A stretch of 64,000 nucleotides of DNA from Escherichia phage ECO340P2. Position numbers and translations under genes: made by a program. The notes beneath the pieces are model-generated. The model worked only from the letters and a program-made list of their open reading frames with translations, was not told the origin of the DNA and made no database searches. Positions within the stretch are counted from its first letter, which is position 1, and each line of letters opens with the position of its first letter. This document shows, piece after piece, positions 2,973 to 20,591 of this stretch. Location: sequence record OP172792; one strand, 5' to 3'.

Positions 2973-3214
2973 AATACTTGTTGGTTGTGTTTGAAAATAT
3001 TTGTTTTGCAATAGGTTTGTTTGTTGTAATTTTTGTATTGACAAGCGTAATCAACGGCAGTAAAGTGAGTTTATACCGAGATGGAGAGCAGCTTTATTGC
3101 TTCTCTGGAGATTTCAAACACAGATGTATTAATAGTCAAAACGAGGAAAGCAAATATGAAAAAACTAGCCCTGATTTTAATTGGTTGTATCTTTTTAACA
3201 GCTTGCGAGGATGA
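2969..3214 (+). CDS. Possible small single-TM protein (uncertain; overlaps next gene)
   Basis: ATGA start/stop overlap with preceding ORF; N-terminal hydrophobic helix LLVVFENICFAIGLFVVIFVL; overlaps the lipoprotein start by about 59 nt, so may be spurious. Confidence 0.25.
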   Translation: MKYLLVVFENICFAIGLFVVIFVLTSVINGSKVSLYRDGEQLYCFSGDFKHRCINSQNEESKYEKTSPDFNWLYLFNSLRG

Positions 3215-3593
3215 AACAAATCCTGCACAATACCAACAACCTCCTCAACAATACGCTCAACAAGGATCTGACGGAGATACAACTATTATCAACAATGGTG
3301 GCGGCTCTAGTAGTAGCGGTGTTGGGGAGTTTGCTACAGGTATGTTGTTAGGGCATATGATGAGCGGTGGTAGTAATCGTGGTGGCGGAGATTATAACGA
3401 TAACAGAACGATTATTAATAAACATTATAACACACCTAAACCAAAGACTAATTTTTATGGTAAACCTAAACAAGAGACAAAAACTTATGAAAAGCCGAGA
3501 CAAACTTTTAAAACAAATAGTAGCTATACAACTCGTAAATCTTACAGTAGCCCTTTAAGTAAAAAGAGTTCATCTCGTAGCAAGCGACGTTAA
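3156..3593 (+). CDS. Lipoprotein (signal peptide with lipobox LTAC), Q/G/S-rich, basic C-terminus
   Basis: MKKLALILIGCIFLTAC is a classic lipoprotein signal with lipobox Cys; GAGG RBS; start ATG 3156 preferred over track start 3081. Confidence 0.6.
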   Translation: MKKLALILIGCIFLTACEDETNPAQYQQPPQQYAQQGSDGDTTIINNGGGSSSSGVGEFATGMLLGHMMSGGSNRGGGDYNDNRTIINKHYNTPKPKTNFYGKPKQETKTYEKPRQTFKTNSSYTTRKSYSSPLSKKSSSRSKRR

Positions 3594-3607
3594 TAAGGAG
3601 AAAAACA

Positions 3608-4201
3608 ATGACAATTTCTATTCGTACTTCCATCGTAGGTGTTAAAAGGTTGCCTAATGCTTTGCAAATCACACGTGCTTTGAGGGATACGTTCTCTGCT
3701 GTGGATGAGCATAAAATGCTTGATAATCTCTCAAATTGGCCCTATTTTCATTATTTTAAAAATGAAGATGACGAGTTTATAGATGCTGTTTCTTATGGTT
3801 ATGATTTCGGTAAGGAGGTTTCTCCTGAAGAATTTGTAGCTACGGTATTCCCAAATGGTTTTCCTACTCGCAGCAAACGTAAAAAAGGACCAAAAAACAA
3901 GAAACGTGCTATTAATAAAGCTACCATTTTCTTTACTGATGGGACACAGTATACGATTAAAGATTTTGAAGAAGTATCTTATACAGCAGGTGGAAATCTT
4001 TCTTTCTACACCATCAAAAAACAAAACGCTACGTTCAGCCATGTTTCTAACATGATTGAAATGTTAGTAGAAGATATTGAAAGCGTGGCTGTGTTAGGTA
4101 TGCATAAAAGCTTTTTAATTACAAATATTTCAGATTTCAGTGCACGTTTATCTAGCCCTGATTTTGAAGCCACGACCACGCATTTCACTTTTAAGGTGTA
4201 A
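3608..4201 (+). CDS. Hypothetical protein
   Basis: ORF track; AAGGAG RBS; no recognisable motif. Confidence 0.5.
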   Translation: MTISIRTSIVGVKRLPNALQITRALRDTFSAVDEHKMLDNLSNWPYFHYFKNEDDEFIDAVSYGYDFGKEVSPEEFVATVFPNGFPTRSKRKKGPKNKKRAINKATIFFTDGTQYTIKDFEEVSYTAGGNLSFYTIKKQNATFSHVSNMIEMLVEDIESVAVLGMHKSFLITNISDFSARLSSPDFEATTTHFTFKV

Positions 4202-16464: not shown

Positions 16465-17259
16465 TTGAGCAAGTTGAACACACTTGATCAATATTACACT
16501 AACCCCGCTTATGCGGGGTTCTTATGTGATAAGATCAAAGAAATTTTTGGAGAGGAAGCTAACTACGTAGAACCATCTGCGGGAGAAGGAGCTTTCTCTT
16601 CTTGTTTTAAAAACATAACTTCTTTTGATATTGACCCTAAGTTTGAAGATTGTATTGAGGCAGATTTTTTAGCCCAATCTGTTGAGTCTGTTGGTAGTGT
16701 AACTGCTTTTGTCGGTAATCCTCCATTTGGAAAAAATGCTAGTCTTGCCATTAAATTCTTTAACCATTGTGCTGAAATGCTAGATAACGAAGGTGGTATT
16801 TGTTTTATCTTGCCTCGCACATTTCAAAAAATCTTTTTTGCACACAAACTAAATCCCCACATGCATCTTCTTTACGAAGAAGAATGTCCAAAAGGATCTT
16901 TTATTCTTCATGGAGAACCTTGGGATGTTCCTTGTGTATTCCAGATATGGATTAAACGCAACGAGAAGCGTTCTCCCGTTGTTTTAGGAGAAAATCGACT
17001 ATTTGTATTAGGCAACAGTAAAGACTACGACATAGCCGTTAGGAGAGCGGGAGCAAGTGCAGGTAAAGTGTTATCAGAAGAAGATTCTTTATCTGAAGCG
17101 TCTACCTATTTTTTAAAAGCCTTGACTTCTGATCTTAAAACGCGTATCATTGAGGCTTACCCGTTACTTAAAGCTGAAGCTAGTAAAACTGCGGGAGTAA
17201 GAAGTTTAAGTTTAAAAGAACTTCAGTGGGTTCTGGAGAACATTAGAAAGGAGGAATAG
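16465..17259 (+). CDS. DNA methyltransferase (amino-MTase, likely N6-adenine; gamma-type motif order)
   Basis: TTG start after AAGGAGG; motif I-like EPSAGEGAF precedes catalytic NPPFG; N-terminal DQYYTNP. Confidence 0.55.
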   Translation: MSKLNTLDQYYTNPAYAGFLCDKIKEIFGEEANYVEPSAGEGAFSSCFKNITSFDIDPKFEDCIEADFLAQSVESVGSVTAFVGNPPFGKNASLAIKFFNHCAEMLDNEGGICFILPRTFQKIFFAHKLNPHMHLLYEEECPKGSFILHGEPWDVPCVFQIWIKRNEKRSPVVLGENRLFVLGNSKDYDIAVRRAGASAGKVLSEEDSLSEASTYFLKALTSDLKTRIIEAYPLLKAEASKTAGVRSLSLKELQWVLENIRKEE

Positions 17260-20200
17260 TGAGTAAGTTTACATGGGATATTGAAGCAAACGGATTGTTG
17301 AATAATGACACTATTGATTATTTGGCTAGTCCTTATCGTCTCAAAGACACATTTCAAATGCACTGTATTGTCTTAGAGAACCATGAAACAGGAGAAATAG
17401 TAGCTTTCCACGATGGCCCTAAATACATTTTTGATGGGCGTCCTTATGAAGAATCAGATGGTAAATACACGTATGTTCTTAAAGAGTATGTGGCGCAAGA
17501 TTACACACATTTTCAACTAAAAGATTTCCCAGACTTTATTAATCATGAAGGTTATTTTCAAGACAAGCCGGAATATCTGGTTGAAATGGCTGTGGCACAT
17601 AACGGTATCAACTACGACTGGTTGGCTACAAAACTGTTTTACGGATTGGATTACAGTGTTAAATATAATACATGGGGTAAAAGCAAGGTAAAACTTATTG
17701 ACTCCTTGATTTTGAGTAAAGTGTTGAACCCAGATCGAAAGATTGAGGGCAAATCAGGACATAGCTTGGCAGCACTTTCTCGAAAGGCAGGTGGTGATGT
17801 AAAAATAGATTTCCGTAAAGAGATTCCAGAAGAAGATCGATTTAAGACTTTTGCTGCGGATATGCTTTATTACTGTATCTATGACAACAAAGCCAATACG
17901 AGCGTATATAATTACCTTATGGAAGAATGGGGTGATTATGATAAATGGGAAGGTCCGTTTGAACTTGAACAACGTGTAGCAGACATTATTACACGCCAGG
18001 AACACCGTGGGTTTGCTTTTAACATGAAGCAAGCAGAAGAGAACCTTGCTTTTTTGGATGCCGAAATGGAGCGTCTTCGTTTACTCGTTGAGCCTATTTT
18101 GCCACCTAAGCCAGCAACAAAAGGTTATCTTAAGGCTTTTATCCCACCTAAGTTGCAAATTAAAAAGAACTTAGAACCAACTAACCATATGATCAATTTT
18201 GCTAAGAAACATGATGGTCATTTGGAAGAGAGAGATGGGGACTGGTGGTTAGTTATGTTGGGGAAAGAGTGGAAACTGCCAGTTGCAGCAGACGAACCTT
18301 TATGTGATCCTCATATCCCTGCAACATTGAATGATACAACCCATATTAAAAACTGGCTTGTAGGTTTAGGTTGGGTACCATCAGAATATAAAGATAAAGA
18401 CTTGACTCTTAAATCTGGCACCAAGATTAAAAAGAGTGAGGAAGAACTTCAGAAAGGTATTCGAGCTTACGTTGAGCAAACTCTATCTTCTAATTTTTGT
18501 CAGGATCGTTGTGATCACCTTGAGTGCACACCGGAAACCTTAGAAAGGAAAATTCAAGAGCGTATAGCAAAAGGTAAAGGTCGCGGTCTTAAAGTGTTGA
18601 CTAACCCATGTTTTACCAAAGGTCAGGAAAAAGAAATTTGTCCTAACCTGCAAGCTTTGGGTGAGAAATTTCCTTATGCTACACAGATTGTAGAATACTT
18701 AACGTATAAACATCGTAGGAACTCTATTTTAGGTGGTGGTGCTGATTGGGAAGAAGACGAAGAAGATCAAGAATACGATAAAGGTTTCTTAGCCGCAGTA
18801 AGGGCGGATGGTCGTATTCCTACCCCAGCCGCTACATGTGATGCTGCAACCTCTCGTATGAAGCATAGGTCTGTCGCTAATATTCCTCGTGTTACATCTT
18901 TGTTTGGATGGGAGATGCGTAACCTGTTTGGTGTGGAGGTTCCTAAATACTTCCAGATCGGCTACGACTTCGACTCTTTGGAAGCAAAAATTGAATCACA
19001 CTACTGTGTGCCGATGGATGCTCAAGCTTTGACTCGTAAAGGTTGGGTAGGATATCACGACCTGAAGGAAGGGGATGAGATTTTAGGGTACAATGCTGAA
19101 ACAGGTCTGAAAGAATGGACTAAAGTAAAAGGTAAGGTCTTCTATAAAAATAGTAAGACGTTTGAGATTAAAGGGAAATCACACACTTACCGTGCAACAG
19201 CAGATCACCGTTGGTATGTTAATACCCGTAGTAAAGGGAATACTTATGTGCCTAAAGTCAGAACAACTGCCGAGCTTTGCACAGGAGATAACATTATTTG
19301 TAATGCTCCATTTAATATGGAACAAGATCAGGTAAATAGTTTAACTTCTGTTCAACAAGGTAAATGGGATGTTCCGTGGGTAGAACGTGTAGTTAATATG
19401 TCTCATGCCGAGCGTGTAGCTTTCTTGGAAGGTTTCTTGATTGCAGATGGTTACTGGCACGAACATAAACAAAAACCTGTTTGGCGTTGGGCGCAGAACC
19501 CAGGTGAACTTTTTGAAGCAGCTTTAACTGCCTCGTACCTGGTGCATGGAGGCAATATCTCTGTAGCTTTCAATACAAAAGAGCAGAAAGTAAAAGTGGC
19601 AACATTGACTAACCGCTCTCACATTCCTGTTCAAAGTTTGACTATTGAAGAGTGGGGTGTAGAGGATGTTTGGTGTCCACAAACAGAACTTGGTACGTGG
19701 GTCATGCGTCAGAAAGACTGCATTACCATCACAGGAAACTGTTGGCGGTACGAGCCGGAGCCACACGAGTATTGTAACGCTCTGTTGTTAGAGAAACCTA
19801 ATGATGTTCACACAATGATGGCAAAACGTATCACTGAAACTATCGGACGTAAATTTGAACGTAGTCCTGCTAAATCTGTTAAGTATGGTATTACCTATGG
19901 TGCACAAGCCGACAAGGTTGCTAAAACAATTGGTAGCGATAAGTTTACAGGTCAATTAGTGTTTGATGCTTTCTGGGAAGCTGCATTCCCATTGGCGCGT
20001 CTTAAAGAACGTTTAAACGATTTCTGGGTTAAGACTGGTAAACAATATGTTTTGGGTATTGACGGTCGTAAGGTTCCTACTCGTTCTGCTCACGCGATTC
20101 TTAACTCTCTGTTCCAAAGTGGTGGGGTTATCTGTGCTAAACGTGCAATGGTTATTTATGACGACATGATCGAAGAAGAAGGACTAAGTGTTGACTTCTT

Positions 20201-20591
20201 TAAAGATGACTGGAAGAATAAAGACTTCGTGCAACAAATGATTGCATATCACGATGAAGCCCAGCTTGAAGTTTCTCGTAACCTTGTAGAATTTAAATGG
20301 TTTTCACCTGAATCATTAGGTTGGAAGAAAGTAGACGATCCTGAAGAACAAAAGAAAATTGATAAAGAATGCCTTGCTAAAGTTGAAGAATGGAAGCATA
20401 ATAAGGAAAAAGAGACGGGACAAATTTGGGCTAACATTCATGAATCTCCCAAAGGTGGATGGTTTACAGCCTATAGTCGGGCAGGTGAACTTGCTGCCTT
20501 AGCTGTTACTAAGGCTGGAGAATTTTACAATCTTAATGTTCAGCTTACTGCCGGATATGATGTGGGTAATTCTTGGGCGTCCTGTCACTGA
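17259..20591 (+). CDS. Family A DNA polymerase with 3'-5' exonuclease domain, interrupted by an intein
   Basis: Exo I WDIEANGL; motif A DFDSLEAKIESHY; after the insertion DVHT, motif B RSPAKSVKYGITYGAQ and motif C IAYHDEAQ. GTG start after AAGGAGGAA. Confidence 0.85.
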   Translation: MSKFTWDIEANGLLNNDTIDYLASPYRLKDTFQMHCIVLENHETGEIVAFHDGPKYIFDGRPYEESDGKYTYVLKEYVAQDYTHFQLKDFPDFINHEGYFQDKPEYLVEMAVAHNGINYDWLATKLFYGLDYSVKYNTWGKSKVKLIDSLILSKVLNPDRKIEGKSGHSLAALSRKAGGDVKIDFRKEIPEEDRFKTFAADMLYYCIYDNKANTSVYNYLMEEWGDYDKWEGPFELEQRVADIITRQEHRGFAFNMKQAEENLAFLDAEMERLRLLVEPILPPKPATKGYLKAFIPPKLQIKKNLEPTNHMINFAKKHDGHLEERDGDWWLVMLGKEWKLPVAADEPLCDPHIPATLNDTTHIKNWLVGLGWVPSEYKDKDLTLKSGTKIKKSEEELQKGIRAYVEQTLSSNFCQDRCDHLECTPETLERKIQERIAKGKGRGLKVLTNPCFTKGQEKEICPNLQALGEKFPYATQIVEYLTYKHRRNSILGGGADWEEDEEDQEYDKGFLAAVRADGRIPTPAATCDAATSRMKHRSVANIPRVTSLFGWEMRNLFGVEVPKYFQIGYDFDSLEAKIESHYCVPMDAQALTRKGWVGYHDLKEGDEILGYNAETGLKEWTKVKGKVFYKNSKTFEIKGKSHTYRATADHRWYVNTRSKGNTYVPKVRTTAELCTGDNIICNAPFNMEQDQVNSLTSVQQGKWDVPWVERVVNMSHAERVAFLEGFLIADGYWHEHKQKPVWRWAQNPGELFEAALTASYLVHGGNISVAFNTKEQKVKVATLTNRSHIPVQSLTIEEWGVEDVWCPQTELGTWVMRQKDCITITGNCWRYEPEPHEYCNALLLEKPNDVHTMMAKRITETIGRKFERSPAKSVKYGITYGAQADKVAKTIGSDKFTGQLVFDAFWEAAFPLARLKERLNDFWVKTGKQYVLGIDGRKVPTRSAHAILNSLFQSGGVICAKRAMVIYDDMIEEEGLSVDFFKDDWKNKDFVQQMIAYHDEAQLEVSRNLVEFKWFSPESLGWKKVDDPEEQKKIDKECLAKVEEWKHNKEKETGQIWANIHESPKGGWFTAYSRAGELAALAVTKAGEFYNLNVQLTAGYDVGNSWASCH
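19005..19739 (+). mobile_element. Intein (about 245 aa) in DNA polymerase, with a LAGLIDADG-like motif
   Basis: Starts with Cys right after motif A; block-B-like TADHRW; LEGFLIADGYW resembles LAGLIDADG; ends ...ITITGN followed by Cys +1. Penultimate Gly instead of His is non-canonical. Confidence 0.55.

Follow-up and report, generated by a model that had tools for sequence, protein, structure and literature searches.

Inteins of the kind that we describe here from Escherichia phage ECO340P2 (sequence record OP172792, a stretch of 64,000 nucleotides referred to as the window) have been annotated in the DNA polymerase genes of two other phages. PaulScherrer (MZ501100, bas60_0044, BASEL collection) and SD2 (PQ821640) carry the same element under the name 'intein-containing DNA polymerase precursor', with mat_peptide features for the DNA polymerase and the intein, and the BASEL paper delimited inteins by comparative genomics (PMC8594841); both the paper and the GenBank features leave splicing tests and the catalytic residues unmentioned. 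A paper of 2024 stated that no inteins had been reported so far in coliphages (PMC11162368), and our literature searches returned no paper describing or characterising this polymerase intein. In most GenBank records the open reading frame (ORF) goes by the name 'DNA polymerase I' or 'hypothetical protein', since the intein family escapes detection by Pfam and NCBIfam. On the experimental side, there is the intein in the recombination directionality factor (RDF, a metallophosphoesterase) of mycobacteriophage Bethlehem, which has a penultimate Gly and has been handled as a class 1 intein. In E. coli its splicing goes to completion, and a Gly-to-His change slows it (PMC5050341, Kelley et al. 2016). 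Class 3 inteins are recognized by a 'WCT' signature made of Trp at B:12, Cys at F:4 and Thr at G:5 (PMC2807308, PMC5222942); they normally lack a nucleophile at residue 1 and nearly always have Ser or Thr at +1 (PMC5222942). Thr at B:7 is generally missing from class 3; in class 1 inteins it 'spring-loads' the first residue (PMC6195587). The polymerase intein of the window (19005-19739, plus strand) is thus already known from public annotation and of a well-known kind. What is new here is the large, almost uncurated family to which it belongs, the mixed class 1 and class 3 residue set of that family, and a single LAGLIDADG half-domain that is under selection. From sequence comparisons and a structure model, the segment is very probably a functional intein of the phage polymerase, and we infer from the same material its splicing, the order of its nucleophiles and its nuclease activity.

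The polymerase is encoded by a plus-strand ORF at 17259-20591 (stop codon included), which starts with GTG and specifies 1110 amino acids. According to the ORF list, Pfam and the annotation of relatives, it is a precursor of a family A (T7-like) DNA polymerase with a 3'-5' exonuclease domain; genes that are 97-98% identical in relatives are annotated as DNA polymerase. The gene shares 97.8% identity with that of phage anhysbys and 96-98% with many others, and the source phage, judged from its sequence, is a phAPEC8-like coliphage of the genus Phapecoctavirus (Stephanstirmvirinae). A preliminary description made from the letters of the window had placed an intein of about 245 amino acids at 19005-19739, running from a Cys to an Asn and followed by Cys, and every coordinate and string that it quoted is present. 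The insert is a stop-free run of 245 codons (CVPMDAQALT...KDCITITGN). Directly adjoining it upstream is DFDSLEAKIESHY, which closes the N-extein (residues 1-582, 17259-19004) with Tyr582 and contains motif A with the catalytic Asp570. Downstream, the codon TGT at 19740-19742 encodes Cys+1 and is followed by WRYEPEP; the C-extein (283 amino acids, 19740-20588), which starts with CWRYEPEP, holds motif B (AKSVKYGITYG) and motif C in the alignments with the phAPEC8 and T7 polymerases.

The evidence that carries the identification comes from alleles without the insert. The phAPEC8 polymerase has 865 amino acids, lacks exactly the 735 nucleotides of the insert and reads ...ESHY-CWRYEPEP... across the site. 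Other alleles without the insert, tuntematon and ESCO37 among them, read likewise, and the flanks are 96.8% (N side) and 98.7% (C side) identical to intein-free alleles. The listed records whose gene matches in two pieces with 78% coverage include phAPEC8, tuntematon, ESCO37, SKA64 and Mt1B1_P17. Of 127 phage records that match the gene, 33 cover at least 80% of it; among the top 30 records listed, numbers 1-21 cover the full gene and numbers 22-30 cover 78%. The DNA of the empty site is CAC TAC TGT|TGG CGG, which in phAPEC8 and tuntematon continues as CACTAC|TGTTGGCGG. Because TGT stands at both ends of the insert, its boundary at the DNA level is ambiguous by one codon, and it is the intein chemistry that sets it at Cys1...Asn245, then Cys+1. 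The repeated codon probably also explains why the intein mat_peptide of PaulScherrer is drawn one codon downstream (3004-3738, against a match at 3001-3735), so that the feature reads VPMD...GNC instead of the chemically sensible CVPMD...GN. The segment is therefore a precise in-frame insertion that orthologous alleles lack. Close to the junctions, identity to phAPEC8 is no lower than elsewhere, i.e., no co-conversion tract was seen around the polymerase intein.

Removal of the insert in silico restores an ordinary polymerase. The predicted spliced protein has 865 amino acids, equal in length to the phAPEC8 polymerase, and aligns without a gap across the junction with T7 DNA polymerase (E 1.3e-19), GYDFDSLEAKIESHY|CWRY lying opposite GIDASGLELRCLAHF|MARF. 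Counted from the printed alignment, Asp570 corresponds to T7 Asp475, the motif A metal ligand, and Tyr582|Cys to T7 Phe487|Met488. By this alignment the palm domain is interrupted 12 residues past the motif A aspartate, in agreement with the earlier placement of the insertion right after motif A. Likewise, the Pfam DNA_pol_A match is split in two in the precursor and forms one contiguous stretch (residues 504-764, 51 bits) in the intein-free phAPEC8 polymerase. The alignments with intein-free family A polymerases (phAPEC8 and T7), the check that the preliminary description had proposed, have thus confirmed the boundaries up to the one-codon TGT ambiguity.

A word-indexed protein search with the intein gave only 9 matches, whereas an exhaustive HMMER search over 1.84 billion cluster representatives revealed a family of 2205 representatives at E<=1e-3, 794 at E<=1e-10 and 78 at E<=1e-30. 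Since a near-identical allele lacks exactly the 735 nucleotides and 794 representatives match at E<=1e-10, these comparisons exclude chance as the origin of the pattern. The search places the window intein in a large family of phage inteins that is almost uncurated. In the 150 best-scoring proteins, the entire query is covered in one piece by 115 inteins (228-263 amino acids, median 251), which makes the single-motif form of about 250 amino acids the commonest architecture in the nearest 150 representatives, and it occurs in several host sites and genes. About 33 of these proteins have versions of 303-374 amino acids with an extra 80-100 residues or so between query positions of about 105 and 120, and mini versions of 142-163 amino acids also exist.

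We built an AlphaFold2 model of the intein with nine metagenomic relatives (predicted local distance difference test (pLDDT) score 79, predicted template modelling (pTM) score 0.77). In a Foldseek search of the PDB, every match at E<=1e-3 was an intein, a Hedgehog domain or a bacterial intein-like (BIL) domain, with the nuclease-bearing TliVMA, PI-SceI and PhoVMA inteins at the top. The model thus gives the insert a HINT fold, and together with the intein-free alleles and the annotation of PaulScherrer and SD2 this bears out the earlier reading of the segment as an intein. Sequence searches are less favorable to the identification. In the curated libraries, Pfam Intein_splicing matched the insert at E 0.007 with 16.6 bits, below its cut-off of 35.8, LAGLIDADG_3 of Pfam reached only E 0.15, and NCBIfam gave no match. 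Intein_splicing touches only 3 of the 18 family members scanned, and the curated libraries neither confirm nor refute the call. Searching the PDB with the single intein sequence returned matches at E>0.07 only, and the family profile reached E 1e-4 to 1e-3 over the N-lobe only, AceL NrdHF (E 8e-4, N-lobe only) included.

We propose the following course of events. The gene would be translated as a precursor of 1110 amino acids, from which the 245-residue HINT domain would excise itself, joining Tyr582 to Cys828 to yield the polymerase of 865 amino acids. In the first step, Cys1 would undergo an N-S acyl shift aided by Thr65 and His68, and the acyl group would then be handed to Cys+1. Asn245 would cyclise without either of the usual helper histidines, the penultimate Gly being the norm of the family, and Cys224, at the usual place of the block F Asp, may coordinate the two junctions or join the acyl relay. 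The half-domain between the HINT lobes may be, or may recently have been, a homing nuclease by which the element passes from phage to phage in co-infections, for which it would need to dimerise. An unspliced polymerase would be interrupted in the palm domain, at the site 12 residues past the motif A aspartate described above. That the phages are lytic and that the records of relatives that we checked annotate one polymerase at this locus offers an indirect viability argument for splicing.

The half-domain spans residues 118-212 or so (19356-19640, plus strand), and in the model the region between the HINT lobes forms a helix (134-148), two strands (149-154 and 157-164), a second helix (168-181) and two further strands (184-189 and 197-202), a single alpha-beta-beta-alpha-beta-beta unit. 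The preliminary description had noted a LAGLIDADG-like motif, and this part of it stands, since LEGFLIADGYW begins at intein residue 141 (19425); it had missed that only one motif is present, half of the usual intein nuclease. According to the model, the insert consists of a HINT fold with one LAGLIDADG core, not two. As in PI-SceI, PI-PfuI, PI-PkoII and TliVMA, a LAGLIDADG fold is inserted into the HINT domain at the customary position; the structures of TliVMA, PI-PkoII and PI-PfuI could be aligned over 222-230 of 246 residues, and the insert alone matched I-DmoI, I-CeuI and I-MsoI in a structure search. Unlike the two-motif intein nucleases, the window intein has one half of about 95 residues. 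Two-motif relatives such as the intein of phage nepoznato have LGWLLSDG and LEAFWMADG, and the unit of the window scored higher against the C-terminal halves of such nucleases (z 10.1 for nepoznato, 5.0 for KIL3 and 4.8 for Mcklovin) than against their N-terminal halves (3.5, 0.7 and 1.4, respectively), GordTnk2 being ambiguous. The half-domain thus corresponds to the C-terminal (block E/H) half.

Residue conservation was read from 116 full-span family members that are 26-51% identical to the window intein. The motif LEGFLIADG (residues 141-149, 19425-19451) ends, as in known LAGLIDADG enzymes, in an acidic residue followed by Gly, here the putative metal-binding Asp148 (Asp in 103 and Glu in 11 of the 116 members) and Gly149 (115 of 116). 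Gln164 (19494-19496), at the end of the second beta strand as delimited in the model, is Gln in all 116; from our own reading of the topology of I-CreI, we take this position to be that of its active-site Gln47. Between the window and PaulScherrer, the half-domain shows 16 synonymous and 3 non-synonymous differences, with a ratio of non-synonymous to synonymous rates (dN/dS) of 0.043 (0.023 for the whole intein), and by these values the half-domain is under purifying selection and not decaying.

Other observations speak against an active enzyme. A lone LAGLIDADG domain cannot cut both strands by itself. Within 12 bp on either side of the insertion point, at most 5 of 11 pairs in the empty site are complementary, which is background; the absence of a pseudo-palindrome gives no support for a homodimeric enzyme and sets the site apart from those of the homodimeric I-CreI, I-MsoI and I-CeuI, although an asymmetric target remains compatible with the data. 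The conservation of the half-domain could also reflect a role in folding instead of catalysis; if it is catalytic, the intein nuclease may be a dimeric or a nicking one. Single-domain LAGLIDADG enzymes are described as homodimers that act on near-symmetric sites and are free-standing or intron-encoded (PMC13619312). Our literature searches found no report of a single-motif LAGLIDADG intein nuclease. The characterised intein nucleases known to us all have two motifs in one chain, and we know of no characterised intein with a single-LAGLIDADG dimeric nuclease.

A possibility to be taken seriously, if not the one that we prefer, is therefore a splicing-competent intein whose half-domain is a non-catalytic remnant needed by the HINT fold and which spreads only by descent and ordinary recombination during co-infection. 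It would account for the presence of only one of the two motifs of the characterised intein nucleases known to us and for the lack of a symmetric target in the empty site; the mini forms of 142-163 amino acids in the family imply that nuclease loss is frequent, and the terminase mini-intein of the same genome (see below) is fixed without any nuclease. It fits less well with the identity of the conserved residues, which are those expected of an active site (Asp or Glu at 148 in 114 of 116, Gly149 in 115 and Gln164 in 116) and not just core hydrophobics, or with the dN/dS of 0.043. It also leaves aside that the single-motif form of about 250 amino acids is the commonest architecture (115 inteins in the nearest 150) in several host sites and genes, and that the patchy distribution of the intein goes with a synonymous divergence below that of the host gene.

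With regard to splicing, the conserved residues combine two classes. Block A (CVPMDAQALTRKGW, 19005-19046) begins with the N-terminal nucleophile Cys1 and contains Gly13, both present in 116 of 116 members, and Trp14 (92%). The block B core TADHRW (residues 65-70, 19197-19214) supplies Thr65 at B:7 and His68 at B:10, each invariant, and Trp70 at B:12 (115 of 116); it thus has the TxxH of intein block B and aligns with block B of solved inteins. The family profile aligns His68 and Trp70 with His68 and Met70 of AceL NrdHF, which have been assigned to N3:10 and N3:12 (PMC7891396). In block F (DVWCPQTELGTWVMRQ, 19665-19712), the place of the class 1 Asp at F:4 is taken by Cys224 (116 of 116), preceded by Trp223 at F:3 (112 of 116), and Val233 occupies the usual place of the helper His at F:13. 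Block G (CITITGN and Cys+1, 19719-19742) consists of Thr243 at G:5 (116 of 116), Gly244 at G:6 (115 of 116), Asn245 at G:7 (116 of 116) and Cys+1 at G:8; the +1 residue is always Ser (48), Cys (38) or Thr (30) in the 116 members. The Cys224-to-Asn spacing of 21 residues is the same as that of the F:4 Cys in the DnaB inteins MP-Be DnaB (320/341), Msm DnaB-1 (118/139), Mle DnaB (124/145) and Mch DnaB-1 (124/145); the block positions given here were assigned from the AceL NrdHF alignment and from this spacing.

The set Cys1, Thr B:7 and His B:10 of class 1 inteins is thus complete and invariant, as are Asn245 and a +1 nucleophile. What tells against a class 1 intein is that the block F Asp, the block F His and the penultimate His are all missing, which leaves no canonical class 1 assistance. 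The non-canonical Gly-Asn end that the preliminary description had pointed out is real and a trait of the family. It comes together with Trp B:12, Cys F:4 and Thr G:5, i.e., with the full class 3 triplet, which the description had not mentioned any more than the annotation in sister phages. The missing penultimate His is not disqualifying for an intein, because the Bethlehem RDF intein, the best experimental precedent for a Gly-Asn end, splices fully with a penultimate Gly. This intein reads C...TANHRV...EVWCLRV...HLTGN|S and shares with that of the window Cys1, TxxH, VWC in block F, a Thr-Gly-Asn end (with Ser as the next residue in the RDF) and a phage host; the family model scores it at 52.8 bits over both lobes. 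It differs in its length of 317 amino acids, two LAGLIDADG motifs, a nuclease toxic to E. coli, Val at B:12 and another host protein, and the two inteins are only distantly related.

The WCT triplet raises the question of whether splicing could take a class 3 route, in which Cys224 at F:4 would attack the N-terminal junction first to give a branched intermediate at block F, the N-extein would be transferred to Cys+1, and Asn245 would cyclise. Cys1 by itself does not exclude class 3, because MP-Catera gp206, which belongs to class 3 according to PMC3196547, also begins with Cys; read directly from the phage genome, it runs CSTPIL...AEHLW...VRCITV...PTHN|T. We nevertheless regard the class 3 route as unlikely. 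Cys1 is invariant where a dispensable residue should drift, and so is Thr B:7, which class 3 inteins generally lack, having DxxH instead (PMC6195587). The family model gives the class 1 RDF intein 52.8 bits and the class 3 Catera gp206 only 22 bits, over the N-lobe only, and the class 3 structures of Msm or Mch DnaB-1 were not found at E<=1 with the family profile against the PDB. The family should not simply be assigned to class 3, since Cys1 and Thr B:7 do not vary and the window copy has Cys+1; these features distinguish it from MP-Be DnaB, Dra Snf2, MP-Catera gp206, Msm and Mch DnaB-1 and AceL NrdHF. In these model and profile comparisons, no specific sequence kinship with the reportedly monophyletic class 3 clade was seen; the host of the intein is a polymerase, not a helicase or P-loop ATPase. 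The conservation pattern therefore points to a family with mixed class 1 and class 3 signatures and without either helper histidine. Because Cys1 and Thr B:7 never vary, initiation by Cys1 is favoured, with Cys224 replacing the coupling Asp or joining a relay.

Tentatively, and with some doubt, we suggest that the family is new in two respects: its combination of class 1 and class 3 residue sets without helper histidines, and a single-domain dimeric homing nuclease. If so, the mixed residue set could mean a two-cysteine relay from Cys1 to Cys224 to the +1 residue, and the family could be the long-postulated phage-borne class 1 form ancestral to class 3 inteins. Family A polymerases of uncultured phages carry these inteins in abundance, and the family is thus natural material for two questions. 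One is whether the class 3 Trp-Cys-Thr set had its origin among phage inteins with Cys1 (divergence) or evolved independently of them (convergence, as proposed in PMC7664689). The other is whether a LAGLIDADG domain of half size, carried by an intein, can be active in homing as a dimer.

It is very improbable that the segment is a native polymerase subdomain, or an insertion that has decayed, no longer splices and is put up with by the protein, as the sub-threshold intein matches in curated libraries and the simple name 'DNA polymerase I' for the whole ORF in most GenBank records might suggest, because it is precisely absent from sister phages whose flanks are over 96% identical, its HINT fold has every junction residue intact, it falls 12 residues after the catalytic Asp in the palm domain, and its dN/dS of 0.023 is incompatible with decay. 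The preliminary description had itself named a native subdomain as what would overturn it, and this is contradicted by the intein-free alleles and the gapless T7 alignment. Three further readings were discarded: a group I intron encoding a nuclease, since the frame runs on without a break and the insert has a HINT fold; a bacterial intein-like domain, since the +1 residue is a nucleophile and the insertion falls in a conserved motif; and a minus-strand ORF of 80 amino acids within the intein (19524-19766), which has no support.

The intein was found in 34 of the 127 gene-matching records, across Phapecoctavirus and Justusliebigvirus, the latter including phi92 itself. PaulScherrer belongs to Justusliebigvirus, and its intein occupies the same insertion site, has the same 245 amino acids in length and is 97.6% identical at the amino acid level, whereas its exteins share only 72-79% DNA identity with the window. 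At the DNA level, identity between the two phages is 92.0% in the intein, 72.3% in the N-extein and 79.1% in the C-extein. Fourfold-degenerate sites differ at 31 of 105 positions (0.295) in the intein as compared with 83 of 151 (0.55) and 47 of 100 (0.47) in the exteins (Fisher p = 1.1e-4). Because of this lower divergence at fourfold sites, the common ancestor of the intein copies is younger than that of their host genes. The patchy distribution and the lower synonymous divergence together imply, as far as sequences can tell, lateral spread of the element. Set against this is a synonymous divergence that still amounts to 0.3-0.45, from which the transfer between the genera appears not to have been very recent. 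Base composition carries no signal of foreign DNA, with a GC content of 0.422 in the intein and 0.396 and 0.410 in the exteins and similar values at third codon positions (GC3). In roughly a quarter of the records of phAPEC8- and phi92-like phages, the polymerase is a precursor of 1110 amino acids that would have to splice to 865. Such phages are used in therapy and biocontrol collections, and in the intein-bearing members, ECO340P2 included, replication would depend on a step after translation that redox state or temperature could influence.

Beyond these genera, the host genes of ten top family matches were scanned, and eight of them encode family A polymerases and one a primase-helicase. 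In the polymerases, the intein sits either at the site of the window (...HY|[C/T][W/Y][R/K]Y...) or in motif B. Phage members in motif B of the polymerase include those of nepoznato (324 amino acids), Pseudomonas phage KIL3 (331 amino acids) and Acinetobacter phage Mithridates (a mini-intein of 149 amino acids), and other phage members are the GordTnk2 terminase intein, the Mcklovin tape-measure intein and the Pinkcreek gp135 intein. In Mycobacterium phage Pinkcreek (MZ958745, cluster C1), gene 135 encodes an unannotated protein of 792 amino acids beside baseplate and minor tail genes, and a two-motif member (C..TMNHRW..VVWCPTT..YFTGN|S) occupies residues 157-498 or so. Seven metagenomic proteins (P0027, P0040, P0051, P0058, P0072, P0077 and P0129) contain two family inteins each, about 20-180 residues apart; those of P0027 lie at 288-545 and 567-809. 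A small lysine-rich protein (P0002-P0006; ...KFDVYP|intein|SAYANGWAAKYYKSKGG...), one example of which has a precomputed PF19846 domain, hosts both single-motif (243-245 amino acids) and mini (163 amino acids) forms, so the family extends beyond replication and packaging enzymes.

The polymerase inteins of nepoznato, ukendt, nieznany and KIL3 share with that of the window the family features (Cys1, T..H.W, V(W/F)C and TGN|C) and a family A polymerase host. They differ in having 324-331 amino acids, two LAGLIDADG motifs and only about 32% identity to the window intein, and their insertion point lies within motif B (KYG|...|CTYGAQ), 50 residues further downstream. Phages with an intein of this type have Thr in place of Cys at the insertion site of the window. 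In the region examined in nepoznato (MN850571, 1105-4674), the motif B site with its intein of 324 amino acids and two motifs reads KYG|C...LTGN|CTYGAQ. Over the region corresponding to 19740-19900 of the window, about ten substitutions cluster in the roughly 50 residues upstream of it (TWRYDNPDHAY..., KHITDII..., ERGP), the change of the +1 Cys to Thr among them, and the rest of the gene is near-identical to the window; by its sequence, this cluster looks like a co-conversion tract left by homing. Inteins of the nepoznato type also occur in the polymerases of the Campylobacter phage records A150, A145, A110a and B15 (MG065639, MG065645, MG065689 and MG065650). Their genes are about 97% identical to those of E. 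coli Phapecoctavirus, and the host label of these records looks doubtful.

The genome of the window contains a second, smaller intein. The ORF of the large terminase (59529-61604, minus strand) has an insert of 159 amino acids at 61002-61478 in the Walker A loop, GGAAG|CVSAETEY...HCFVTGN|SGKS. This insert lacks a nuclease domain; it starts with Cys1, contains His-Arg-Phe in block B and ends in Thr-Gly-Asn, with Ser as the next residue. The preliminary description was right that the two inteins of this genome end alike. We read the Cys in its KYCFET stretch as F:4, by analogy with DVWCPQT and not by alignment. Unlike the polymerase intein, the mini-intein appears fixed, as the gene is covered to 80% or more in 72 of 73 related records. 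Against the family model it scores 31.8 bits, over the N-lobe only, and is a distant relative of the polymerase intein; a tblastn search of the 64,000-nt window with the polymerase intein found no second copy, and the two inteins are thus not close paralogues. In nepoznato, the match to the terminase gene (NC_052658, 3553-6597) is broken in two, and an HNH endonuclease is annotated between two features named 'terminase large subunit', which suggests an additional intron or a free-standing homing-endonuclease insertion.

Upstream of the polymerase gene, an ORF for a DNA N6-adenine methyltransferase (16465-17259) ends in a TGA stop codon that shares one base with the GTG start codon of the polymerase at 17259. 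The same one-base overlap is annotated in phAPEC8 and nepoznato, and it suggests translational coupling of the two genes.

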